Below are positions 17,189 through 39,212 of a DNA stretch of 64,000 nt, in pieces. Below the pieces are notes generated by a model. That model did not search any database and was not told where the DNA came from. It worked only from the letters and a program-made list of their open reading frames with translations. The stretch is from IMG/VR virus record IMGVR_UViG_3300042146_000099, positions 9,470-73,469 of that record; one strand, given 5' to 3'. Within the stretch, counting starts at the first letter, position 1. Each line of letters begins with the position of its first letter. Origin of the DNA: a virus. The position numbers were made by a program, and so were the translations under genes.

Positions 17189-17383
17189 GTGGCCGAGTAC
17201 CGCGTCAGCCGCTACGCGCACAGCCGCATCTACCGCTGGCAGTGGCGCTGCCTCCACGCCGAACACGTCGGCGTGAACCCGAACCCGGTCCGTTGCCCGG
17301 AAGGCGGTGTGGCCCGCTCGGAGGACGAGGCGAACCGGACGGCGGCCGAGCACGCGCAGGCCCATGACGGAACGCCGCCGTGA
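17189..17383 (+). CDS. Small hypothetical protein
   Basis: RBS AAGGAGG. Confidence 0.55.
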   Translation: MAEYRVSRYAHSRIYRWQWRCLHAEHVGVNPNPVRCPEGGVARSEDEANRTAAEHAQAHDGTPP

Positions 17384-17552
17384 CCGTGCGGCGGCCCGTG
17401 CGCCCACAACAGGCCCGAGAAAGCCGCTGTGCGCCCGTCTCCCGGCCTCAACCCCGCTCGCGCGGCTCTCGCGACGCCGGAACCCCTCCAGCGGCCCGCA
17501 GGCACCCGCACAGCGCTTCGCCCCCACAAACCCGACGCAACCGGAGCAACAC

Positions 17553-17927
17553 GTGACAAACCCGTACCGCGTCCTCGTCACCGGCAGCAGGACCTGGAAC
17601 GACCAAGCCGTCATCTGGCAGGCCCTCGCCAACGTCGTCCGCCAACTCCCCCCAGACCGCGAGGTCGTCCTCGTCCACGGCGCATGCCCGCGCGGCGCCG
17701 ACGAGATGGCCCACCAGTGGATGCGCGGCTACGGCGGCGTCATCGAAGCCCACCCAGCGAACTGGGTGAAGCACGGCAAGGCCGCCGGGTTCCGCCGCAA
17801 CGCCGAGATGGTCGCCCTCGGCGCGGACATCTGCTTGGCGTTCATCCGCAACAACTCCCGTGGCGCCTCCCACACCGCCGCCCTCGCCGAGAAGGCAGGC
17901 ATCCCGACCAGGAGGTACACCGCGTGA
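17553..17927 (+). CDS. SLOG-family protein (YspA/DUF2493-like)
   Basis: VLVTGSR, VHGACPRGAD, AGFRRNAEMV, SRGASHT. Confidence 0.85.
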   Translation: MTNPYRVLVTGSRTWNDQAVIWQALANVVRQLPPDREVVLVHGACPRGADEMAHQWMRGYGGVIEAHPANWVKHGKAAGFRRNAEMVALGADICLAFIRNNSRGASHTAALAEKAGIPTRRYTA

Positions 17928-18082: not shown

Positions 18083-18321
18083 CCGCCCCCGACGTCCTCA
18101 CCTCCGCCGCCAAGGAACTCCTCGCCGACCCCGACAGCCGCGAGATCGTCCTCCCCTCCGGCGCGATCATCTCCGCCACCCTCGCCACGCCCCTCGCCGT
18201 CTGGCTGACCGCAGAAGCCCGCCGCATCTCCTGCGCGTCCTCGACAGCCGGTCAAGAGATCGTCGGCCGCAACGCCCTCGCGGTGGCGCGCGCCATCCTC
18301 GGCACCCAGGAGACCGCATGA
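18079..18321 (+). CDS. Hypothetical protein
   Basis: Coupled ORF. Confidence 0.55.
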   Translation: MTAPDVLTSAAKELLADPDSREIVLPSGAIISATLATPLAVWLTAEARRISCASSTAGQEIVGRNALAVARAILGTQETA

Positions 18322-18821
18322 GCATCTACGCGTCGATCGAAGGCGTCGGCGGCGACAGCGACCCCGAACACCTCGGCAAGCCCTGGATCTACCGCGGCAG
18401 CCACCTCACCCCCGCCGAAGACGACCCCCGCAACGGCGTGATCGGCCTCGCCCTCATCCCCTCCCACATCACCGCCGACGCCCGCGACGACTCCCCAGCC
18501 GACGGCCCACCATGGCCATGGCTACGCCTGCGCCTCACCGTCGACGGCGACGACCCGACCGTCCTCATCAACCCCGCACAAGCACGGTTCCTCGCCGAGC
18601 AGCTCGCTACCTGGGCCGACCGCGCAGACCCGCCCGAGTTCCCCGGCGGACAGCACTGGTGGATCCACACCCGGCTCCCCTCCGGCAGCAGCGTCTGCGG
18701 GCCCGGCAGCAGCGACCGCGACGCCGTCGTTACCCGGCTGGCCGAGCTCCGGGCCGCGAACCCGAACGCCACCTACCGGCTCGTCTGCGACACCAGCCGC
18801 AGCACCGTGGAGGACGCGTGA
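18318..18821 (+). CDS. Hypothetical protein
   Basis: ATGA overlap with RBS. Confidence 0.65.
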   Translation: MSIYASIEGVGGDSDPEHLGKPWIYRGSHLTPAEDDPRNGVIGLALIPSHITADARDDSPADGPPWPWLRLRLTVDGDDPTVLINPAQARFLAEQLATWADRADPPEFPGGQHWWIHTRLPSGSSVCGPGSSDRDAVVTRLAELRAANPNATYRLVCDTSRSTVEDA

Positions 18822-19282
18822 CCGACCAGCCCAAGGAACACGACGTCGTGCGCGCCGCACGCCTCGACAGCCTCAGCGTCCTTCTCACCCGCATCGCCAA
18901 CGGCCGAACGCTCACCCCGGAAGAGGCCCGGCTCCTGGTGAAGCACGTGGGCGTCGAGGTCAGCGAGTCCACGACCGCGCGAGCCGTCGGCGCCGAACTC
19001 GCCGCGCTCACCCAGCGTCTCGACATCGGCGACGCACAAGCCTGGTGCAAGTACTGCCGCCGCGCCTGGGACAGCCCCGCACACCGCTGCGAGTCGGACG
19101 CTGAGCAGCGGGTGCAGCGGATCGCTGAACTCCGTGATCGGTGGCTGATGGCCGGGCCGCCGCCCCTCGGCACGCCCCTCGCACGCTGGTGGGACAAGCG
19201 GCTCGCTGAACTGAACGCCGCCCTCGACGAGCCCGCACCCGCCACGCCGACAGCGACCCAAGCGACCGACCAACCGAAGTGA
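18818..19282 (+). CDS. Hypothetical protein
   Basis: GTGA overlap. Confidence 0.6.
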   Translation: MTDQPKEHDVVRAARLDSLSVLLTRIANGRTLTPEEARLLVKHVGVEVSESTTARAVGAELAALTQRLDIGDAQAWCKYCRRAWDSPAHRCESDAEQRVQRIAELRDRWLMAGPPPLGTPLARWWDKRLAELNAALDEPAPATPTATQATDQPK

Positions 19283-19302
19283 ACACGCCTGCCGCAAACA
19301 GC

Positions 19303-19335
19303 GAAACGCCCGCCCTCACCCAGGACGGGCGCTTC
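19303..19335. terminator. Hairpin between the early operon and the convergent peptide gene
   Basis: GAAACGCCCGCCCT-caccc-AGGACGGGCGCTTC imperfect stem. Confidence 0.55.
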
Positions 19336-19347
19336 CACACACCGCGC

Positions 19348-19524
19348 TCAGACCGACGACTGGAACGCCGCCACCGACACCCTGCCCGGACCCTTCGGCT
19401 CCTGCCCGCGGGGCGCGATCCGCGTCAACGCCGGCGAACCACCACCGCGGGCGAGACGGGCGAGCGGCACCCGCTCCGGACCGTCAGGCTCGGGCTGGTC
19501 GCCGGGGAGGAGGATCGTGTTCAT
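19348..19524 (-). CDS. FxSxx-COOH (FxsA-like) peptide 1, 58 aa
   Basis: Hand translation MNTILLPGDQPEPDGPERVPLARLARGGGSPALTRIAPRGQEPKGPGRVSVAAFQSSV*; absent from ORF track. Confidence 0.75.
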   Translation of the reverse strand: MNTILLPGDQPEPDGPERVPLARLARGGGSPALTRIAPRGQEPKGPGRVSVAAFQSSV

Positions 19525-19768
19525 CGGCTACTCGCTCTCGTCGTGCTGGTGCTGTGGGGACCGTACCGGGCGCGCGGGGTCTGGCATGCTGGTTGCGGCA
19601 ACGCTCGTCTGCTCGCGGGAAACCCGGGCCCCCGAGAATCCGTCGGGTGACAGCCGGGCGGGCCGTCTGCCGGGACAAGGCCGGAACCAGGGAACTGGAT
19701 CCCTCCCGCACTGCGGTTCCCCGTCGGGGAGGTCAGCCGCGCGGGATGCGGCCCCCGGAGACAGCACA

Positions 19769-19800
19769 CGGCCCGCCACCCTGACTGGGGTAGCGGGCCG
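19769..19800. terminator. Hairpin
   Basis: CGGCCCGCCACCC-tgactg-GGGTAGCGGGCCG. Confidence 0.45.
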
Positions 19801-19969
19801 TTGCCACGGGGCGCCCTCCGCTGCGGACCACCGACCGTACGCGCACGGTGTGGGTGAGGGAAGACCTCGAACGGGTGAACGGCACCCACTGTCGTACCCG
19901 CCCCGTACCCTGATCGTGCTGGCCCGTCGCAAGCTGCTGCCGACCGGTCAGTGGTGCTGAACAACAAGA

Positions 19970-20000
19970 GCGCCCCGCCTCACTGACCGAGGCGGGGCGC
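19970..20000. terminator. Hairpin downstream of DUF6221-like gene
   Basis: GCGCCCCGCCTC-actgacc-GAGGCGGGGCGC. Confidence 0.6.
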
Positions 20001-20033
20001 AGCTGTTCGGGGCTCAACCCCACGACGTGTCGC

Positions 20034-20453
20034 TCATGGCCAGTCCTCCTTATATCCGGGCCTGTCAGCGTATGGGAGGGCCATCTCGCGGACGGTCTGT
20101 TTCGCGAAGTGCACAAGACGCGGGATGCCGGACAGCATCTCCTCCTCGCAGCGGATGAGCATGCGCCTCTTGGCGTCGATCTCGCGCAGGACACGCGCCG
20201 GATCATGACGGGCGATGAATGCCGCCTGCCGCGCGCCGAGCGGGTTCAAATCATGACGCGTCGGCAGCCCGCTCTCCGGGTCGGTGTCGTACTCCAGCAC
20301 GGGATTGCCCATGTCGTCGTAGATCGCGCCATCACCCCGTTCGTGAGCGATCAGTTCCCAGCAGTCCCCGCCGTCCTGCCGTGCCGCACGCGCGGCCGCT
20401 TCTTCGGCGTCGAGCTGGGTGCTGAGCCAGCGCACAAGATCCTCCACGATCAC
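20034..20453 (-). CDS. DUF6221-like protein
   Basis: FIARHDPARVLREIDAKRR...MALPYADRPGYKEDW. Confidence 0.8.
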   Translation of the reverse strand: MIVEDLVRWLSTQLDAEEAAARAARQDGGDCWELIAHERGDGAIYDDMGNPVLEYDTDPESGLPTRHDLNPLGARQAAFIARHDPARVLREIDAKRRMLIRCEEEMLSGIPRLVHFAKQTVREMALPYADRPGYKEDWP

Positions 20454-20971
20454 CCCTCCGACTCCTGCTGCGCCTTCTTCTTCGCCCGGTCAGCCTTGGC
20501 CCGTTGCGCCGTACTCACGCCCTTGCTGATCTGCTGGGCGCGCTCCGGCGTGACACCGTAGGGCGTGATCACGACCAACGGCTTCCTCTGCCTAGTCACA
20601 ACGATGGGCATGCCTGACTCTGCCACCTGATCGATGGTCCCTCCCGCCCCCAGCGTGAAGCGCGAGATCGGCAGCACCTCGCCGGGAGGCGCGCCGTGTA
20701 CAGCGTGCACCCAGCGGACGGACGCCACGTTGTAGCGGGGGTGCTCCTCGTGGATCACACGCTGCTCCTCGGCCCACGCCGCCTCGCGGTCCGGAAGCCA
20801 CCGGATCTCCTTGGTCGAAACTTCCGGCCACCATTCCTTGTCGGCCTTGTGATCCGCGAAGCGCGTCTTGATGTCGTAGGTGATACCCACATACAGCAGC
20901 GTCTCGTCAGCGTCATAAAGCCGGTATACGGCTGTCTCGCGGGGGCCGCTGGATCGGTTCGGTACAGTCAA
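20450..20971 (-). CDS. GIY-YIG domain fused to Phd/YefM-like domain (copy 1)
   Basis: AVYRLYD..LLYVGIT...R...H...E...PRYN; IDQVAESGMPIVVTRQRKPLVVI. Confidence 0.75.
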   Translation of the reverse strand: MTVPNRSSGPRETAVYRLYDADETLLYVGITYDIKTRFADHKADKEWWPEVSTKEIRWLPDREAAWAEEQRVIHEEHPRYNVASVRWVHAVHGAPPGEVLPISRFTLGAGGTIDQVAESGMPIVVTRQRKPLVVITPYGVTPERAQQISKGVSTAQRAKADRAKKKAQQESEG

Positions 20972-21040: not shown

Positions 21041-21343
21041 TCATTCCTCAGCAGGCTTCTTCCGGGGCTTCGTGCCCCACGCGCTGCCGTGGCCCCGCTC
21101 GATGTTCTGGACGACTCCGAGAGGCAGCTTCAGCCGGGCGGCGATCTTCCGATACGAGATCTCCTGCGCGCGCATCAGCTCGATCGCCTGCCGCTGGAAC
21201 TCGCGCAACTCGGGCGCCCGCTCCTTGTAGCTGGCCAACACCTCGCTACTCACCACGGCGCGCTCGATCGGGTCCTCGATCTCGTCGATCTCTCTCAGAG
21301 CGTCGATCACCTTGCGCGCCTCCTCGGTGACGTCGTCGATCAT
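21041..21343 (-). CDS. Small HTH regulator
   Basis: SYRKIAARLKLPLGVVQNIERG; start trimmed to MIDD. Confidence 0.75.
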   Translation of the reverse strand: MIDDVTEEARKVIDALREIDEIEDPIERAVVSSEVLASYKERAPELREFQRQAIELMRAQEISYRKIAARLKLPLGVVQNIERGHGSAWGTKPRKKPAEE

Positions 21344-21370
21344 TCCCGTCCTCCCAATGGGGCGGGCCAC

Positions 21371-21399
21371 TTGCCTCAGTGTATGCCATGGCATACGCT
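21371..21399 (+). promoter_or_regulatory. Sigma70-type promoter with 16-bp palindromic operator
   Basis: TTGCCT-17-TACGCT enclosing perfect palindrome GTATGCCATGGCATAC (21381-21396). Confidence 0.7.
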
Positions 21400-21515
21400 C
21401 GGATCGAGGGGCCAGCCCAAGGTTCCTCAGCACCAACAGGAATGCCCCGGACAGGAGTTCGCACCTCCTGCCGGGGCCAGCCATCCCCCTGCCGTGAACA
21501 GGAAGGACAGCCACC

Positions 21516-21716
21516 GTGGATCGTAACGGCCAGCCGCAAGCCGGGCCCAGCCCCCGCGCCATCGCCATCCGCAACGCCGCCGACGCGGCCAACGCCTACC
21601 AGGCCAGCCCGGACACGTACACGCTGCACCGCATGCAGTCCGCCGTACAGACCGCGCAAAACCTCGGCGCCACCCTCCGCGACATCCGCGCCGCACGCCC
21701 GGCGGTGACCTCGTGA
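21516..21716 (+). CDS. Small hypothetical protein
   Basis: RBS AAGGA; first gene after promoter. Confidence 0.55.
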   Translation: MDRNGQPQAGPSPRAIAIRNAADAANAYQASPDTYTLHRMQSAVQTAQNLGATLRDIRAARPAVTS

Positions 21717-26659: not shown

Positions 26660-26782
26660 ATGGTCGTCACGATCAAACCCCGTCCGCCGGCCGCCGCGTT
26701 GCCGCGTCCGGTGGTGCCTCTCGCGAGGGTGGTGCCGCGTCCGACAGCTCGGCGGGGTGCGTCGTTCACGTCGGCGTTGTAG
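26660..26782 (+). CDS. FxSxx-COOH-like peptide 2, 40 aa
   Basis: RBS GGGAG; MVVTIKPRPPAAALPRPVVPLARVVPRPTARRGASFTSAL*; absent from ORF track. Confidence 0.65.
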   Translation: MVVTIKPRPPAAALPRPVVPLARVVPRPTARRGASFTSAL

Positions 26783-27238: not shown

Positions 27239-27542
27239 TGGCGCTCCGTTCCGGGCAGGTGCGTGGGTCTTCCCCGTCGCACGCCTCGCACCAGTGCTGG
27301 ATCACCGCGAGCGGCGCCTGACACAGGCAGTCCTCGCCGGGGCACTCCTCGATCTCCGCGCGGCAGCACTGGTGCACGAGGTGCCACGCCAGCTCCGGCC
27401 AGTCCGGCGGGTACTGGGTATCGCAGTCACCGCCGACGCCTTGGCAGCGCGGCCACGAGTCCTCCTCGCGCGGCGGCAGGTTGTCCCACGGCAGCGGCGA
27501 CAGCCATGAGGGGCGTTCGGGGGTCTCGCTGGTCGTGGTCAT
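27225..27542 (-). CDS. Cys-rich hypothetical protein
   Basis: Coupled to GIY-YIG-Phd gene. Confidence 0.55.
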   Translation of the reverse strand: MTTTSETPERPSWLSPLPWDNLPPREEDSWPRCQGVGGDCDTQYPPDWPELAWHLVHQCCRAEIEECPGEDCLCQAPLAVIQHWCEACDGEDPRTCPERSASVQG

Positions 27543-28027
27543 GCGGTCGGCTCCTCGTTCGTGCCGTACACCTCGTCGTGCGTTAGCAGACCCATGGCGA
27601 GTGCCTCAACCGCTGCGTCGTAGTTCTCGGGCGACATAACGACTCCGGCAACCTTGCCTCGCCGCGTGATCGCAACGTCCCTGCCGCCGAACTGGGTCGC
27701 GTCCAAGAGGTCAGAGATTCGGAGTCGGGCTTGCGACTGAGTCAGCGCGTCCGGAATGGGGAAGTGTGTGGCGACCAGGCTCGTTCGGGCGCCTGCCGTG
27801 TTGTATAGCGGCTCCTCTGCCTGGACGGCCGAGCGTTCTGCCTTCTCTGCCGCTTCTCGGTCGGGGTGCCATTCCACCGTGCGACGCCGGACCAGCGACC
27901 ACCACGGCTTGTCGGAGGCGTGCTGCGTCCACCGGATCTCTGGCTGCGTACTGATGCCGACATAGAGCAGCGCTCCGCCGTCGTCGTAGAGGCGGTACAG
28001 GGCGGTGCGCTGACTTGAGGTCGTCAC
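27539..28027 (-). CDS. GIY-YIG domain fused to Phd/YefM domain (copy 2)
   Basis: ALYRLYD..LLYVGIS...R...H...E...PLYN; SQARLRISDLLD...VAITRRGKVAGVVMSPENYD. Confidence 0.8.
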   Translation of the reverse strand: MTTSSQRTALYRLYDDGGALLYVGISTQPEIRWTQHASDKPWWSLVRRRTVEWHPDREAAEKAERSAVQAEEPLYNTAGARTSLVATHFPIPDALTQSQARLRISDLLDATQFGGRDVAITRRGKVAGVVMSPENYDAAVEALAMGLLTHDEVYGTNEEPTA

Positions 28028-33489: not shown

Positions 33490-33933
33490 ATGAGCCACCC
33501 CTGCACCCGCCCCGAATGCGGTGCTCAGCTGCACACCGACCCGTGGGGCGTCCCCGTCCAATGCCCCCACACCGAGCCCGTAGCCGACACGGGGCGGCGT
33601 TGCCCGCGCTGCGACTGCCCCGACGGGCACGAGCAGTGCGAACACTGCAAGGTCTGCCCGCACGCAGGCGGAAGCTGTACGGACCCTGACGACGACGCGC
33701 GTGCCCGAGCAGAGAAAGCCGAGGCCGCCATCACCCGCGTACGCGAAGTGCTCGCCGAGCGCCTCGCCGAAGTCGCCGAACGCGAGGCCGACGGCATGCT
33801 GCCCTTCGGCACGCCGGGCGCCTCCTGGTGCGACGCGGTCACCGTCACCTGCGCCCGCATCGAAGACGCCCTCCGCCCGAAGACGGCAGCCACGGGCGTA
33901 CCAGCCGAACCGGACCCGCAGGAGGCGCCGTGA
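33490..33933 (+). CDS. Hypothetical Cys-rich protein
   Basis: RBS GGAG, MSHPCTRPEC... Confidence 0.55.
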   Translation: MSHPCTRPECGAQLHTDPWGVPVQCPHTEPVADTGRRCPRCDCPDGHEQCEHCKVCPHAGGSCTDPDDDARARAEKAEAAITRVREVLAERLAEVAEREADGMLPFGTPGASWCDAVTVTCARIEDALRPKTAATGVPAEPDPQEAP

Positions 33934-34079
33934 ATACCGCCATCGCCATCACCGCGATCATCGCCGCCACGCTCGTCGCCAGCCAGATCATCACCGCTAT
34001 CCGCGACGTGGCCAAAGCCAAGCACCAGCCCACCCGCGAGCAGCACGCGCGCGACAACAGCAAGGAGAACGAGGCATGA
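33930..34079 (+). CDS. Small membrane-anchored protein
   Basis: Overlaps on both sides, one TM. Confidence 0.5.
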   Translation: MNTAIAITAIIAATLVASQIITAIRDVAKAKHQPTREQHARDNSKENEA

Positions 34080-35032
34080 AGGTACTGGTCACCGGCGGCA
34101 GCGGCTTCATCGCCTCATGGATCCGCCGCGAACTCACCACACGCGGCCACCACATCCTCGTCATGGACCACCAGGACCGCCGCCAGCATTTGGCGCCCGG
34201 TGAGGAGTTCTTCCTCGGCGACGTCCGCGACGCCACCGCCGTCACCGAGGCCGCCGCCCACGTCGACGGCATCATCCACCTTGCCGCCGTCCTCGGCACC
34301 CAAGAGACCATCCACAACCCGCGCCCGTCCGCCGAGACGAACATCCTCGGCTCGCTGAACGTCTTCGAAGCGGCCGCCCAGTACAACCTGCCCACCGTGT
34401 ACGCCGGGGTGGGCAACCACGCCTTCAGGCTCGTCGGAACCGGCTGCTACACGATCACCAAGAGCGCGGCCGAAGACCTGGCCCGCATGTACAACCTCTA
34501 CCGCGACGGCGGCCGGATCACGATCGTCCGCCCCGTCAACGCCTACGGGCCCGGCCAGTCCATCGCCAAGCCGTATGGCACGAGCAAGGTGCGAAAAGTG
34601 ATGCCAGCGCTGACCTGCCGCGCCCTCACCGACACGCCCATCGAGGTCTACGGGGACGGCACCCAGGTGTCCGACTGCGTCTGGGTGAAGGACGTGGCGA
34701 CGGCGTTCGTGGCCGCTTTGGAGCACACGGCAGAGTACGGCCACACCGAGCGGCCAGTGGAAGTCGGGCCCGCCAGCTCCGTGACGGTCAACGACATCGC
34801 GAGGATGGTGGCGGAGGAGGCCTCCAAGCACACCGGCCTTGCGCCGGTGGACATCGTGCACTTGCCCATGCGGCCCGGTGAAGTTCCGAACGCTGTGGTC
34901 AAGTCGGACGTGTCCACGCTCCAGCAGATCGGCCTGGACGCTGCCGATTTCTTGCCGCTCGAAGACGGCATTCGCCAGACCGTCGAGTACTACGCCACCG
35001 AGTGGTTGCCGGGATGGAGCCCGAGTCGATGA
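34076..35032 (+). CDS. NAD-dependent nucleotide-sugar epimerase/dehydratase (extended SDR)
   Basis: TGGSGFIA, HLAA, YTITK, NAYGPGQ, YGDGTQVSD. Confidence 0.92.
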   Translation: MKVLVTGGSGFIASWIRRELTTRGHHILVMDHQDRRQHLAPGEEFFLGDVRDATAVTEAAAHVDGIIHLAAVLGTQETIHNPRPSAETNILGSLNVFEAAAQYNLPTVYAGVGNHAFRLVGTGCYTITKSAAEDLARMYNLYRDGGRITIVRPVNAYGPGQSIAKPYGTSKVRKVMPALTCRALTDTPIEVYGDGTQVSDCVWVKDVATAFVAALEHTAEYGHTERPVEVGPASSVTVNDIARMVAEEASKHTGLAPVDIVHLPMRPGEVPNAVVKSDVSTLQQIGLDAADFLPLEDGIRQTVEYYATEWLPGWSPSR

Positions 35033-35505
35033 CGACGGAAGTGGCGACGAGGCGCTGCCCCGACTGCAAGGAAACAAAGCCGCTCGATGAGTTCTACTAC
35101 AACCCGAAGAGCACGCTCAAGACTCGAACCTCTTCCCACTGCAAGGTGTGTGCGCGACGGCGGGTCCGGGAGCACAACAAGCGCAACGCTGAAGCGATTA
35201 GCGAACGGCGTAAAGCCGCACGGCGGACGCCAGAAGGCCAACGCAAGAGCCGGGACCGAGACCTGCGGCGGCACTACGGCATTGGTCTCGTCGATCTGGA
35301 GCGGATGATCCGTGCGCAGGGAGGACGCTGCGCGATCTGCGAGGACGAGTTCGAGTCTGACAAGCACACGCACGTCGACCACTGCCACTTCAGGGGCACT
35401 GTCCGGGGCATCCTCTGCTCGTCGTGCAACCTCATGCTCGGGCACGCCAAGGACGACCAGCGGCGGCTTCTCGCTGCCGCTCAGTACCTGGAGCTGCCGT
35501 CATGA
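35029..35505 (+). CDS. Endonuclease VII-family endonuclease
   Basis: QGGRCAIC...HVDHCH..G.VRGILCSSCN..LG. Confidence 0.88.
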   Translation: MTTEVATRRCPDCKETKPLDEFYYNPKSTLKTRTSSHCKVCARRRVREHNKRNAEAISERRKAARRTPEGQRKSRDRDLRRHYGIGLVDLERMIRAQGGRCAICEDEFESDKHTHVDHCHFRGTVRGILCSSCNLMLGHAKDDQRRLLAAAQYLELPS

Positions 35506-36515
35506 TGAAGGTCCACTTCTGGTCCGCCGACATGGCGGGTTCGGCATGGTACAGAGCCGTGATGCCCGCGATGGGCCTCTCCTGGCTCGGCCACACCGCC
35601 ACCCACCACCCCCGCCTGCCCCGGAACTGGGAGTCGTACGACACGATCGTCGGCTGCCGCGTCGCCCAGACCAGCCCGTCGAAGATGTGGTGGCACCTCA
35701 AGCAGGAGGGGAAGCGGCTCGTCCTCGACCTTGACGACGACTACTTCCACATCGACCCGTCCAACGCTGCCGCGGTGCGCGTGTGGGATCGGGACATGCT
35801 CGGCCGGCTGGCCCACAACATGGGCGTCGCGGATCTCGTGACGTGCTGCTCGGAGCCTCTCGCGGCCGTGCTGCGGGACTACGCGGAGAACGTTGTGGTC
35901 ATTCCGAACGGTCTGCCCGCGCAGTATCTGGGCAAGCCACGCGACTACCGGGCTGACGACCGGCCGTTGTATGTGGGGTGGGCGGGGACAGCGTCGACGG
36001 TGGCCGAACTGCCGGAGGCGGTGCGCGCCCTGAACCGGATCTCGCAGTACCCGCGCCCCGGTGGGGTGATGGTGCGGCTGGTGGGGATCGATGCGAAGCA
36101 GGCGATGGGCCTTGGGTTGAAGGGCCGTCGGATTGGTGCGCTCGGGTGGGTGGAGCGGGTGGAGCACTATCTGCAAGCCGTTGAGGAGTTCGACGTGTGG
36201 GTGGCTCCGTATCGGGATACGGCGTTCAACCGGGCGAAGTTCCCGACGAAGTGGCTGGAGTCCAGCGTTCTCGGCATTCCGTTGATCGCGTCGGATACGG
36301 AGGCGTACCGCGCGGTGATTCGGCATGGGGAGAACGGGTTCCTTGTGCGGTACGAGCACGAGTGGGGCCGCTATCTGAAGCAGCTAGTCGACGATCCCGA
36401 CCTTCGTCAGCGGGTCGGTATGACGGCGCGGGGTGAGGCGTCGGGGAGCATCATGCAGGCGTTGCATCACCGGTGGGAGGACGCCGTACGCGTACCCGTG
36501 GAGGTGAGCACGTGA
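35502..36515 (+). CDS. GT-B (GT4-like) glycosyltransferase
   Basis: WYRAVMP, DLDDD, VIPNG, VGWAGT, FNRAK..KWLE...G.PLIASD...Y..I.HGENGFL. Confidence 0.85.
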   Translation: MMKVHFWSADMAGSAWYRAVMPAMGLSWLGHTATHHPRLPRNWESYDTIVGCRVAQTSPSKMWWHLKQEGKRLVLDLDDDYFHIDPSNAAAVRVWDRDMLGRLAHNMGVADLVTCCSEPLAAVLRDYAENVVVIPNGLPAQYLGKPRDYRADDRPLYVGWAGTASTVAELPEAVRALNRISQYPRPGGVMVRLVGIDAKQAMGLGLKGRRIGALGWVERVEHYLQAVEEFDVWVAPYRDTAFNRAKFPTKWLESSVLGIPLIASDTEAYRAVIRHGENGFLVRYEHEWGRYLKQLVDDPDLRQRVGMTARGEASGSIMQALHHRWEDAVRVPVEVST

Positions 36516-37087
36516 CCTCCCCCGACTGGACGATGGCCGTGTCCCTGCACGCGGCTGACGGGCCGGGAATGGCCCGCTTCACCTGTGTCCCCCGTGACAG
36601 TGATCTGCTCGTGACTGGCGTAGTGGAAGCCACCGACCACGGCATCGTCATCACATCCATGGAGTTCTCCACGCAGGCCCCTTCCGGCATCACGGCGACC
36701 ACGAACCGTTCCTTCCGCCTCGGCGAGCTGCTCGCCTACCTCCGCACCGCGCGGGAACTGGACGAAACACGGCGTGCCCTCGGTCTGCACCAGAGCGCCG
36801 CCGAGCCAACCGCCGTGTCCCCTGAAACGACCTTGCGACCCCGACGGGGTGGGCGCCCTGCCGTGGGCGACGAGACCCTCCGCGCGCTGGCGGTCGCGTA
36901 CTTGGAGGAGTGCGCGCACGGCAAGCCAGCGGGATCTGTGGCGAGAGTCGCCAGTCGCTTCGGCCGTCCAGAAGAGACCATCCGCACGTGGCTCGCCCGT
37001 GCCCGGAAAGAGGGCTGGCTGACCGCTGGAGTCAGGGGCAGGCGAGGAGCCGAAGCAGGGCCGCGCCTGCGAGAGGAGAAGGCGTGA
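36512..37087 (+). CDS. DUF6214-like protein with C-terminal HTH
   Basis: LAVAYL...VASRFGRPEETIRTWLARARKEGWL. Confidence 0.65.
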   Translation: MTSPDWTMAVSLHAADGPGMARFTCVPRDSDLLVTGVVEATDHGIVITSMEFSTQAPSGITATTNRSFRLGELLAYLRTARELDETRRALGLHQSAAEPTAVSPETTLRPRRGGRPAVGDETLRALAVAYLEECAHGKPAGSVARVASRFGRPEETIRTWLARARKEGWLTAGVRGRRGAEAGPRLREEKA

Positions 37088-37341
37088 CCGCCGAACTGCC
37101 CTGCTGCCAGGGTCTGCCAGAGCACACGTACGGGACTGAGTGCCTGCACCACCGCGAGGAGTCGTTCGACATCAGCACCGAGGACGGGCGAAAGGCTCTC
37201 GCCCGGAAGATGGCGGACGACTGGCGGGAGAACGGCGGGGTGCTGCCCCCTGGCGTCACCTACATCCGGCTGGAGCCCGGCGAGCACATCCTCAGCGGGG
37301 AAGACATCCGCCGTCTCCTCGAAGGTGAGGAGGACCAGTGA
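37084..37341 (+). CDS. Hypothetical protein
   Basis: GTGA overlaps. Confidence 0.5.
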   Translation: MTAELPCCQGLPEHTYGTECLHHREESFDISTEDGRKALARKMADDWRENGGVLPPGVTYIRLEPGEHILSGEDIRRLLEGEEDQ

Positions 37342-37832
37342 TCCACATCCCCATCACAGACAGTGCACTGCCCGGCGTCGAAGCCACCTTCTCCTACGCC
37401 CTCCGAGGGGACACCCTCGCTCTGATCGAAGTACGCATAGCGGCAGCAGGCACCGTATCCGTGCCCGCCATTCAGGAAATGCCGCTCAGCCGCTGGGAAA
37501 AGCGGGCTTGGGGTACTGCGATGAGGCGGCTCCTAGCAGCTGAGGAGACACCGGAGCGCCGCGTTCTCGCACGGCATCCGCAACTGGCGAACGTCACGCA
37601 CGGCAACGCCCTCCGGCGCTGGAAGTCCCTGGTGCACCTCGCCAGCGTTGCAGCCGAGTACGCAGATGCGATGGAAGCGGGCGCCAGCAACCCAGCCCAG
37701 ACCGTTGGGCACCGGCACAACGTTTCAGCGGCCACCGTACGTGGCTGGCTGCACCGTGCACGCAGGGAGGGTCTCGCGCCAACAAGCACACACCCCAACG
37801 CGGTGGGCAGCAGGAAGGACGGCAACGCGTGA
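37338..37832 (+). CDS. DUF6214-like protein with C-terminal HTH (second copy)
   Basis: VAAEY...NPAQTV..RHNVSAATVRGWLHRARREGL. Confidence 0.65.
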   Translation: MIHIPITDSALPGVEATFSYALRGDTLALIEVRIAAAGTVSVPAIQEMPLSRWEKRAWGTAMRRLLAAEETPERRVLARHPQLANVTHGNALRRWKSLVHLASVAAEYADAMEAGASNPAQTVGHRHNVSAATVRGWLHRARREGLAPTSTHPNAVGSRKDGNA

Positions 37833-38038
37833 CGGGCCCGGAGCATTACCGCGAAGGCGAGGAGCGGCTACGCGCCAGCGACTACCAGCGCGCGCAAGCA
37901 GGCGACGAAGGCGACCTCACCACCGCCATCCACGAAGCCGCCATGGCCCAAGCCCACTTCACAGCCGCGCTCGTCGCGCTCCTCGCCTACGACCGGCAAC
38001 CCGACAGCGTCGCCTGGCAGAAGGCGGTCGGCTGGTGA
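37829..38038 (+). CDS. Small phage protein
   Basis: MTGPEHYREGE...AQAHFTAALV. Confidence 0.65.
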   Translation: MTGPEHYREGEERLRASDYQRAQAGDEGDLTTAIHEAAMAQAHFTAALVALLAYDRQPDSVAWQKAVGW

Positions 38039-38346
38039 GTAACAAGATGACCTGCCTGGGTTGCCAGTCGCATACGTCAGCGGTCCTCACCGCCTACGAA
38101 GACGGCGAGCCGTGCCCCTACTGCAAGCTGTCCGCCGCCGCGACCTTGGAGATCCAGACCATCCGCAGGGCGCGCGCCGACGATGAACTGAAGGCGAAGC
38201 TGGAGCAGGCGATCAAGGAGCGCGACGAGGCGCAGCGGGAACGCGACTGGGCGAAGCAGCGTCTCGCCCACGTCGAGAGCGAACTCACCGACCTTGTGGA
38301 ACGGATCCGTCGACCGCTCAGCGATGAACCGGGGAGCGTCTGGTGA
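38035..38346 (+). CDS. Zinc-ribbon plus coiled-coil protein
   Basis: CLGC...CPYC. Confidence 0.6.
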   Translation: MSNKMTCLGCQSHTSAVLTAYEDGEPCPYCKLSAAATLEIQTIRRARADDELKAKLEQAIKERDEAQRERDWAKQRLAHVESELTDLVERIRRPLSDEPGSVW

Positions 38347-39212
38347 ACATTCTCGTCACTGGTGCGGCCGGATTCATCGGCAGCCACCTCGTCCGCGCCC
38401 TGGAAGCGCGCGGGCACACGATCACCGGCATGGACAAGCGGAACGGACTGCCCACCACGGACCTTTCCCAGCTCCGGCGCACCGTGGACACCGCCGAGCC
38501 CGACGTGATCGCGCACCTCGGCGCCTCCTGCTCCACCTCGGTGAGCCTCGCCGATCCGGCCAGTGACTTCACGGACAACGTGGTGGGCACCTTCAACATC
38601 GCGGAAGGCGCACACCGGGCGGGCAACATCCCCGTCGTCTACACCAGCAGCGTCAAGGTCCACCCCGGCGCTGATGGGCTCACCGCCCCCCTCGGCCTGT
38701 CCAAAGCCGTCGGCGAGGACTACCTCCGCCTCTACCGCGAGCTGTACGGGCTGCCGTCCGTCATCCTCCGGCCCTCCACCGTCTACGGGCCCGGCCAGAA
38801 CGGCAGCGCCGAAGCAGGCTGGGTGACGTGGTTCCTGCGCGCCTTCTGCGACCGCAAGCCCATCACCATCCACGGCGACGGCAGCCAGTCCCGGGACATC
38901 CTCTACATCGACGACTTCACGAGTCTCCTTGTCGACATAGTCGAGCACCACGCCGACTACGCGACCGCGACCGAGCCGTACGACGTCGGCGGCGGCCCCG
39001 ACAACGAACTCGAACTCCTGCAACTCGTGAACGCCCTCGAAATCGAGACCGGCACCCGGCACCCCGTCACCCACGACAAGCGCCTCCCCGGCGACCTCCA
39101 GCGCGTCGTCACCGACAACGCGGCCATCACCGCCGTACGCGGCTGGACACCCACCACCCACTGGTTCGACGGCATCCGGGAGACGCTCAACTGGATCGGA
39201 GAACAGTGGTGA
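38343..39212 (+). CDS. Second NAD-dependent epimerase/dehydratase
   Basis: TGAAGFIGSHL, YTSS, VYGPGQ, GDGSQSRD; YxxxK replaced by LGLSK. Confidence 0.88.
   Translation: MNILVTGAAGFIGSHLVRALEARGHTITGMDKRNGLPTTDLSQLRRTVDTAEPDVIAHLGASCSTSVSLADPASDFTDNVVGTFNIAEGAHRAGNIPVVYTSSVKVHPGADGLTAPLGLSKAVGEDYLRLYRELYGLPSVILRPSTVYGPGQNGSAEAGWVTWFLRAFCDRKPITIHGDGSQSRDILYIDDFTSLLVDIVEHHADYATATEPYDVGGGPDNELELLQLVNALEIETGTRHPVTHDKRLPGDLQRVVTDNAAITAVRGWTPTTHWFDGIRETLNWIGEQW

Follow-up and report, generated by a model that had tools for sequence, protein, structure and literature searches.

A predicted FxsA-type RiPP precursor gene without an adjacent maturase in a temperate phage, probably of an actinobacterium

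The DNA analyzed here (64,000 nucleotides [nt], referred to as the window) comprises bases 9470-73469 of the virus record IMGVR_UViG_3300042146_000099, a linear IMG/VR record of 73,469 bases that is ~84% complete according to CheckV. On its minus strand, at 19348..19524, the window carries a gene of 58 codons plus stop for a peptide of the FxsA (FxSxx-COOH) family of peptides that are ribosomally synthesized and then modified after translation (RiPPs). Judged by its sequence, this open reading frame (ORF) is a genuine FxsA-type precursor gene that is coding and under purifying selection. It stands in a phage record in which the maturase FxsB was not found. Our overall best reading, put forward tentatively and given slightly less than an even chance, is that the peptide is a trans-matured mimic of host FxsA which manipulates the predicted Fxs TIR-ParA immune module of the host.

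The preliminary description of the window, made from the nucleotide letters, had pointed to a minus-strand ORF of 58 amino acids (aa) with VPLARL and ALTRI segments and a terminal F-Q-S-S-V, and these were present exactly at 19348..19524, with an ATG start. The translation is MNTILLPGDQPEPDGPERVPLARLARGGGSPALTRIAPRGQEPKGPGRVSVAAFQSSV. The peptide contains the leader motifs ERVPLARLA and SPALTR and the core GPGRVSVAAFQSSV, and it ends in F-Q-S-S-V with the stop codon immediately after, in the ~60-aa F-x-S-x-x format of the family. The proposed family membership was borne out by a profile search against NCBIfam, where the model TIGR04268 ("FxSxx-COOH cyclophane-containing RiPP peptide", curated cut-off 28 bits) aligned to residues 16-58 along positions 3-44 of its 44, scoring 35.4 bits (E 9e-9). 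In a six-frame search of the phage genome, the same model gave 34.7 bits for the peptide gene. Among the Pfam models, no family matched the phage peptide itself; its database homologues carry the precomputed Pfam family PF27839.

Coding capacity was supported by composition, homologues and substitution patterns. The G+C (GC) fractions at the three codon positions of the ORF were 0.76/0.60/0.88, which is the pattern of genuine genes in this record of 68.6% GC. A search of 5.8 billion proteins returned 25 full-length homologues (56-67 aa, 59-86% identity) in addition to the protein of the window, several of them carrying the source name FXSXX-COOH protein, and all genome loci with relatives of the peptide (27/27) belonged to Streptomyces or Kitasatospora. 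In the homologue alignment, R18, L21, L24, A25, R35, P46, and the stretch V-x-V-A-A-F-Q-S were invariant. The F and S of F-x-S, the conservation of which had been raised as a point to check, were the same in 26/26 aligned homologues. Over the last 14 codons of eight phage-type copies, the proportion of synonymous differences (pS) was 0.40 and that of nonsynonymous differences (pN) 0.07 (ratio 0.18), and the invariant V, A, and S positions were each encoded by 3-5 synonymous codons across 48 sequences. The low pN/pS together with the codon variety at invariant positions indicates that the core is constrained at the protein level.

Gene calls and Pfam matches in the record included a large serine recombinase, XRE-type helix-turn-helix (HTH) proteins, Rad52, an exonuclease, WhiB, an antirepressor, a DNA methylase, and an HNH endonuclease. 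The structural genes comprised a major capsid protein, a scaffold, an SPP1-type portal, a tail tube, and a 1530-aa protein of tape-measure size; an amidase gene was also present. To judge from its gene content, the record represents a temperate siphovirus; with 68.6% GC and a WhiB gene, it probably belongs to an actinobacterium, Streptomyces being the likely host genus. The Fxs partners, described earlier as absent from the 64 kb, were absent from the whole 73,469-base record: TIGR04269 (FxsB) had no match anywhere in it, the FxsB, FxsC, and FxsD proteins of S. scabiei gave no match as tblastn queries, and no Pfam Radical_SAM domain was found. No cognate fxsB was therefore seen elsewhere in the ~84% of the element that is covered. 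The Radical_SAM domain was likewise found in none of the four FxsA-bearing viral records (0/4). By sequence the peptide is a member of the FxsA protein family, but with these partners absent from the record its locus does not constitute an Fxs system.

Relatives of the peptide were compared at 49 loci, namely the window, three viral, 27 genome, and 18 metagenome loci; two of 20 metagenome loci (L051, L052) had been dropped because they were not clean FxSxx ORFs. The chromosomal system used for comparison was the fxsA-fxsB(H)-fxsC-fxsD/T cassette of Streptomyces and Kitasatospora (TIGR04268, TIGR04269, TIGR04267, NF040588/TIGR04276, NF040586). In S. scabiei (L016) and S. ipomoeae (L029), fxsA lies directly upstream of the genes for FxsB, FxsC, and a protein of ~1335 aa. 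FxsB (~800-830 aa, TIGR04269 609-615 bits) is fused to an aKG-HExxH peptide beta-hydroxylase (TIGR04267), FxsC has a TIR_2 domain and the FxsC C-terminal domain, and the ~1335-aa protein has a ParA-like P-loop, TIR_2, NB-ARC, and TPR repeats. All the partners that the preliminary description had listed for canonical loci, the radical S-adenosylmethionine (rSAM)/SPASM enzyme FxsB, the HExxH module, the TIR protein FxsC, and the NB-ARC/TPR protein, were seen at these two loci. The start of FxsB lies within ~50-260 nt of chromosomal fxsA. FxsB was directly downstream in 26/27 genome loci, and FxsC and the large protein were present as well in 23/27; L010 and L013 stop at a contig edge, and L028 has FxsB only. 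Among 301 sampled Streptomyces genomes, the FxsB family exceeded its cut-off in 192 and FxsA in 125. FxsB-family maturases were multi-copy in this sample (up to five per genome), and at least two cassette types were observed, one with an FxsB of ~750-850 aa that is fused to HExxH and adjoins FxsA, and one with an FxsB of ~430-600 aa located ~6 kb away. According to the NCBIfam names, FxsB installs a Phe-to-Ser cyclophane, and in the triceptide literature FxsB likewise makes this crosslink.

A recent preprint provides a framework for these loci. It predicts a TIR-ParA apoptosis system, with enrichment in multicellular bacteria, that consists of FxsC and its active TIR together with the ParA-TIR protein; it describes the large Fxs protein as ParA plus an inactive TIR plus STAND/TPR; and, in purely computational work, it proposes the FxsAB peptide as an antiviral molecule or alarm signal (bioRxiv 10.64898/2026.10.19.760177). 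No phage-borne FxsA is mentioned in its main-text passages on the peptide, mimicry or phage-encoded factors. It was the one publication treating the TIR-ParA/FxsAB system among the matches listed in the literature search, and no publication was found that joined Fxs, radical SAM, cyclophane, and Streptomyces. Two other candidates, the minviopeptin paper (PMC12912966) and the ocean RiPP-phage paper (PMC11118758), had no bearing on Fxs in the passages at hand.

FxsB adjoined the peptide in 30/49 loci (26/27 genome and 4/18 metagenome loci) and was missing beside it in 19/49. By synteny, viral record or PHROG matches, 14 of these 19 were phage or prophage contexts; the other five (L033, L037, L047, L048, L050) lay on contigs of just 1.6-4.6 kb, where no neighbouring gene was informative. 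The window and the viral loci L003, L004, and L005 were assigned to phages by their records. L006, on a contig of S. ossamyceticus, is surrounded by an excisionase-like regulator, phrog_6326/DUF6221, a DnaB-like helicase, and a replication initiator. A convergent homologue of the window gene at 18318-18821 was found in L034, L040, and L043, a DUF6221 homologue upstream of the peptide gene, as in the window, in L036, L038, and L042, and other phage genes shared between loci in L035, L039, and L049. In related phages and in one prophage, the peptide gene recurs at the same position. Two of the viral loci have phage backgrounds unlike that of the window (L004 with DnaB, HNH-helicase, Thg1, and DpdA; L005 with DnaB, IstB-like, NUDIX, and RNA ligase genes). 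L005 comes from a record with provirus classification, and L006 represents a resident prophage; no integrase was found in the records of L003, L004, and L005, which are 13-81% complete (L004 55%). F and S had been lost in none of the 19 loci without FxsB. The sole genes recurring beside the peptide across loci were DUF6221 and a 167-aa gene, neither with a known peptide-binding domain.

The phage and chromosomal peptides are alike in their match to the family hidden Markov model, in their length class, and in the ERVPLxxLA and SPALTR leader motifs and RVxVAAFQSSV core that both share. Chromosomal copies are mostly 64-65 aa with the N-terminus MNASLD... or MNTPT..., whereas window-type phage copies are 58 aa, begin with MxTxxLPGDQP, and have a linker three residues shorter. 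The phage copies also differ by the absence of FxsB, FxsC, and FxsD, by their upstream element (see below), and by their phage neighbours. A tree was built from 46 rows, with the truncated L003, L040, and L048 left out and the context groups set before tree building; the alignment had 65 columns only, and the finer branching is unreliable. The window grouped with 12 other rows in one clade (13 rows in all, of which 10 were phage-context and 3 context-unclassified; support 83/94, not starred). The viral L004 paired with the Kitasatospora chromosomal L032 (support 100/100), and L043 and L050 were nested within a chromosomal "-SAV" clade (support 81-89). The starred branches forced at least three changes of the phage label, and a single clade of the 12 phage-context rows was rejected by the approximately unbiased (AU) test (log-likelihood difference 22.5, p 0.023). 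On this tree, the phage copies are not one lineage; they follow the FxsA type of the matching host group, and phages unrelated to that of the window hold copies of other host types.

The one lysogen found carried both kinds of copy: in S. ossamyceticus, the last 11 residues of the prophage copy (L006) are identical to those of the canonical copy beside FxsB (L010). A profile of the phage-type alignment detected this FxsA subtype in 5/301 sampled Streptomyces genomes; the lone full-length phage-type match fell in one of those five, and the remaining matches adjoined FxsB. The single lysogen suggests that matching subtypes co-occur (n=1). With the 11 identical end residues of the lysogen pair and the nesting in host FxsA clades, the phage copy is, at the level of the peptide, closely alike to the host's own component, as a mimic would be.

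The complex of the phage peptide with a host maturase was modelled using the 833-aa FxsB of S. scabiei, aligned with chromosomal FxsB sequences (25 in the alignment), and the peptide with its homologue alignment. The pair scored 0.80 in each of three runs, and the best of three controls scored 0.00. The calibration mark, which is rough here given the custom alignments, was reached by 58/80 solved complexes and 2/110 mismatched pairs. The runs agreed in at least 55% of contacts, and the partner had a predicted local distance difference test (pLDDT) value of at least 49. In the confidently predicted interface, peptide residues 14-38, corresponding to the conserved leader columns, face FxsB ~418-506, a region that follows the rSAM/SPASM module (44-406) and precedes the HExxH module (638-803). 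The model lends support to a predicted binding of the leader to host FxsB.

The surroundings of the gene point to separate expression. A purine-rich Shine-Dalgarno-like stretch, GAGAGCGAG, putatively lies at 19531..19539 (minus strand), 6 nt upstream of the ATG, and related phage copies have GGAG or GCGAG at this position. A putative promoter of the gene's own is marked by TACGGT, a -10-like hexamer at 19560..19565 (minus strand), 41 nt upstream of the ATG. TAC[CG]GT occurred within 90 nt upstream in 13/15 loci that had no adjacent FxsB and had 90 nt upstream, and in 0/30 chromosomal fxsA; L035, L036, and L037 are near-identical, so that the 13/15 count comprises fewer independent loci. The distance from the start codon was 36-41 nt in 10 loci and 13 nt in three, which are possibly leaderless. 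We infer from these positions that TAC[CG]GT is a promoter -10 element; a scan with the sigma-70 consensus found no promoter upstream of the peptide gene. As the hexamer is found in phage-type and not in chromosomal loci, the phage copies appear to be without the host fxsA control region. In the whole record, TAC[CG]GT occurred 19 times, against ~46 expected by composition, and 4/19 occurrences were within 70 nt upstream of a gene start, with no extended common motif. Two of the hexamers, at record positions 2389 (plus strand, outside the window) and 9953 (minus strand, window 484), were located 37-38 nt upstream of a gene for a 406-aa XRE-type HTH protein and of a divergent 419-aa gene near the integrase, a spacing similar to the 41 nt before the peptide gene.

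Hairpins flank the unit on both sides. Upstream, an intrinsic-terminator-like hairpin at 19970..20000 (minus strand; 13 pairs, 11 of them G-C, with a T-rich tail) ends the DUF6221 operon. Downstream, the hairpin noted earlier after the ORF was confirmed at 19303..19335 (minus strand): it has a 14-bp G+C-rich stem, and the 76 nt after the stop codon fold with -40.9 kcal/mol (z -3.95, 0/200 shuffles as stable). This hairpin is likely a terminator, possibly a bidirectional one, to judge from its stem and position, although a terminator scan found the T-run criterion unmet by it. It separates the peptide gene from a convergent 154-aa gene at 18818-19282 (plus strand; GC at third codon positions 0.85). 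Given terminator-like hairpins on both sides, the peptide gene would be a stand-alone transcription unit, and its orientation is opposite to that of the flanking plus-strand early genes. Between the upstream hairpin and the -10-like element lies a non-coding 5' region of ~400 nt (19566..19969, minus strand). The 520 nt upstream of the peptide gene had no codon-position GC bias in any frame (0.70-0.75). Blocks and hairpins of the 5' region, including a second G+C-rich hairpin, were conserved with L034, L038, and L042 in a four-sequence alignment, in which the copy of the window has an insertion of ~85 nt. The consensus fold had a positive (unfavourable) covariation term, and four sequences are too few to call an RNA; a search of 19000-20300 against Rfam gave no family, only a chance miRNA match at E 0.22.

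In the reading we favour, a promoter belonging to the gene itself would drive synthesis of the peptide, either following infection or in the lysogen. FxsB(H) of the host would recognise the conserved leader ERVPLxxLA...SPALTR and install the Phe-x-Ser cyclophane, giving more of the same mature peptide as host fxsA yields; maturation in trans to the host's own product is proposed on the ground that both the core and the contact motifs of the leader have been kept. More speculatively, the mature peptide could be a ligand that holds or tunes FxsC (TIR) and the ParA-TIR-NB-ARC-TPR module, and its supply from a phage promoter could keep a predicted abortive-infection module silent when host expression shuts off. 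The steps differ in weight. Dependence of the orphan FxsA on host FxsB in trans is probable, and action of the phage peptide on the host Fxs module at all is rather to be expected than not. That this action is specifically anti-defence, through antidote or ligand mimicry, is speculative and a tentative suggestion at best, and the most specific version is somewhat less likely still. In it, phages of Streptomyces and Kitasatospora would have captured the host precursor gene repeatedly, and the host-matured, host-identical cyclophane peptide would signal "all is well" to an abortive-infection module of the TIR-ParA-STAND kind.

The preliminary description had suggested a decoy or mimic, or a trans substrate for a host Fxs locus, and that Fxs loci might consequently act in phage conflict. 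The mimic and trans-substrate part gained from the core identity in the lysogen with its matching locus, from the tracking of host type, and from the leader docking model. The decoy part, in the sense of a dead substrate, lost ground, with F and S invariant under purifying selection: since F and S were never lost, the product, rather than a mere blockade of the enzyme, seems to be selected. A role of Fxs loci in phage conflict is already predicted in the preprint passages on the system (bioRxiv 10.64898/2026.10.19.760177), so that the novelty lies in finding a copy on a phage.

Phages are known to capture or mimic the antidotes of abortive-infection systems, as with the pseudo-ToxI RNA of PhiTE against ToxIN and T4 Dmd against RnlA/LsoA. 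The phage FxsA is similar in being a look-alike, taken from the host or modelled on it, of a small neutralising or regulating host component with the rest of the system absent; it differs in that it would need maturation by a host enzyme, and a neutralising role of FxsA is only hypothesised. The Tad1 and Tad2 proteins, with which phages sequester the TIR product of Thoeris, share with it a presumed target in a TIR-containing host module. They are product-sequestering proteins, whereas the phage FxsA is a copy of a host peptide substrate and has no similarity to them. A precursor without an adjacent maturase is also known from the prochlorosins, where ProcA peptides encoded far from the maturase are processed in trans by one ProcM, the leader being recognised by the distant enzyme. 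There, the enzyme is in the same genome; in the present case a virus encodes the precursor, and any enzyme would be the host's. The immune framework for the phage FxsA is supplied by the TIR-ParA/FxsAB system as described in the preprint passages (bioRxiv 10.64898/2026.10.19.760177).

Several points weigh against this reading. The immune role of Fxs is a prediction: PADLOC matched only the ParA-like N-terminus of the large protein (candidate PDC-M28B) and nothing in FxsC. An fxs locus in the host of this phage is presumed; a search for the phage capsid in the 301 Streptomyces genomes returned five with 41-51% identity, 0/5 with the matching FxsA subtype, and did not identify the host. The co-occurrence of a prophage copy with a matching host locus comes from n=1 lysogen, and, as the record is ~84% complete, a maturase could sit in the missing part. 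In the complex model, the peptide's own fold was of low confidence (pLDDT 49-53), the core was not placed in the active site, and the model could have passed merely through the likeness of the leader to host FxsA. Over the whole peptide, the ratio of nonsynonymous to synonymous substitution rates (dN/dS) was only moderately low (0.12-1.09 in 36 pairs), so that much of the leader would be loosely constrained, with parts free to vary. The stretch was matched in DNA data of rhizosphere and soil metagenomes and in no RNA run, a result that is uninformative on expression either way. When 50,697 deposited phage genomes were searched for the peptide by tblastn, the best match had E = 7, which is not meaningful, and the peptide was absent from PHROGs and from plasmids; megablast of 3 kb against the deposited phages also gave no match. 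From these absences, the gene would be a rare trait of a narrow phage group. Finally, under the preprint model of an antiviral or alarm peptide, as set out in the passages concerned (bioRxiv 10.64898/2026.10.19.760177), the copy of a lytic phage would be self-harming, which favours lysogenic conversion.

Lysogenic conversion ranks next after antidote or ligand mimicry. Here, prophage FxsA would raise or prime the Fxs output of the host, either as the alarm or antiviral peptide or through a more sensitive TIR module, and lysogens would be protected against other phages by superinfection exclusion via the host's own system. This we hold to be unlikely, and yet it agrees with much of the evidence: the phage is temperate (serine integrase), L005 is a provirus and L006 a resident prophage, and the layout appears moron-like, with a -10-like element, terminator-like hairpins on both sides, and opposite orientation. 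The preservation of F and S points to a product that matters, the same hexamer stands 37-38 nt upstream of two genes of the integrase/HTH region, and the signal or antiviral peptide of the preprint passages fits (bioRxiv 10.64898/2026.10.19.760177). The cassette, however, is 22 kb from the integrase, amid replication and recombination genes; the match with the immunity region is 6 nt only, with no extended motif; and the L004 record, though only 55% complete, shows no integrase.

The remaining explanations are less likely. A host fxs fragment gained by illegitimate recombination and functionless in the phage would agree with the nesting of phage copies among host FxsA, which indicates host-phage gene flow, and with the rarity of the trait among known phages. 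Such a neutral passenger is improbable in view of the purifying selection on the core, the retention of the gene at the same locus across copies diverged to dS 0.4-1.0, and at least three separate origins or exchanges; moreover, the upstream element is phage-specific and not the host fxsA promoter region, and the phage copies have a common distinct N-terminus and the shorter linker. Quite improbable, too, is a competitive decoy, the leader of which would occupy FxsB, block maturation of host FxsA, and starve the system. Its conserved leader motifs dock on FxsB in the model, and the putative own promoter could drive high expression, but a blocker needs no modifiable core, and RVxVAAFQS, including F and S, is invariant with synonymous variation, identical to the core of the host, and without loss of F or S in any of the 19 loci lacking FxsB. 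A host-matured, exported signal read by a phage regulator in an arbitrium-like lysis-lysogeny decision is very improbable: a small gene with a putative own promoter in a temperate phage and an HTH gene 1.5 kb upstream on the same strand (21041-21592) would suit it, but arbitrium has a conserved adjacent receptor gene and no receptor candidate is conserved beside the peptide across loci, no signal peptide or exporter was seen among the phage genes, and with a core identical to the host's the phage could not distinguish its own signal from that of the host.

Fxs cassettes are common in Streptomyces, and an immune role of their TIR-ParA part was predicted only recently, in the preprint passages cited above. 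A selected precursor-only copy in a phage is independent genomic evidence for a part of the peptide in phage-host conflict or lysogen protection, and a precursor without enzyme suggests that the phage needs the peptide product and not the enzyme. The list of host functions borrowed by phages would be extended to RiPP precursors matured in trans. If the mimicry reading is true, this would be the first anti-defence mechanism that feeds substrate into a host RiPP pathway, and the FxsA peptide would be the gate of an immune system, not an antibiotic.

A second ORF in the window, at 26660-26782 (plus strand), encodes 40 aa with a VPLARV segment and the end F-T-S-A-L-stop, followed by a hairpin. TIGR04268 did not match it at E <= 10, and the search of 5.8 billion proteins returned no homologue. 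Its FTSAL end resembles that of a weak (21-bit) FxsA-like ORF of S. ossamyceticus ending FTSALV (L055, 1453-1629), which is ~5.6 kb from a 445-aa FxsB paralogue. The 40-aa ORF may mimic a second Fxs subtype, or the likeness may be due to chance.

At 17307-17927 (plus strand), 1.4 kb from the peptide gene, lies a gene with a SLOG-family domain (PF10686 YspA/YAcAr, 67 bits), homologues of which were found 1-3 kb from FxsA in L003 (1109-1564) and L049 (13178-13582). SLOG domains are thought to bind nucleotide-derived ligands. A SLOG protein acting as a phage sponge for a TIR product would fit an anti-Fxs island. The DUF6221 gene (phrog_6326; 20034-20453, minus strand) neighbours FxsA in three arrangements and phage backgrounds, with further copies near FxsA in L004 (10684-11238), L039 (287-1054), L036, L038, and L042. 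DUF6221 has 671 homologues, and its model (pLDDT 92) has the shape of a helix, a three-strand sheet, and a helix bundle; no solved structure matched it at E <= 0.001, and the model gave no functional clue. Two paralogues at 20450-20971 and 27539-28027 (both minus strand) consist of an N-terminal GIY-YIG nuclease fused to a C-terminal Phd/YefM antitoxin-like domain, and homologues of these were located near FxsA in L043 and L049.

The segment 21811-26581 (plus strand) encodes a NUDIX hydrolase, a 311-aa protein, an FtsK/SpoIIIE-type ATPase of 766 aa that carries a winged helix at its C-terminus, and a protein of 158 aa that contains a hydrophobic stretch. The set is unusual for a phage and is similar to transfer modules known from integrative and conjugative elements in actinomycetes. 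Further along, at 33701-39212 (plus strand), two NAD-dependent epimerase/dehydratase genes and a group-1 glycosyltransferase gene were found, the products of which may modify the host surface or the sugars of phage DNA or protein.

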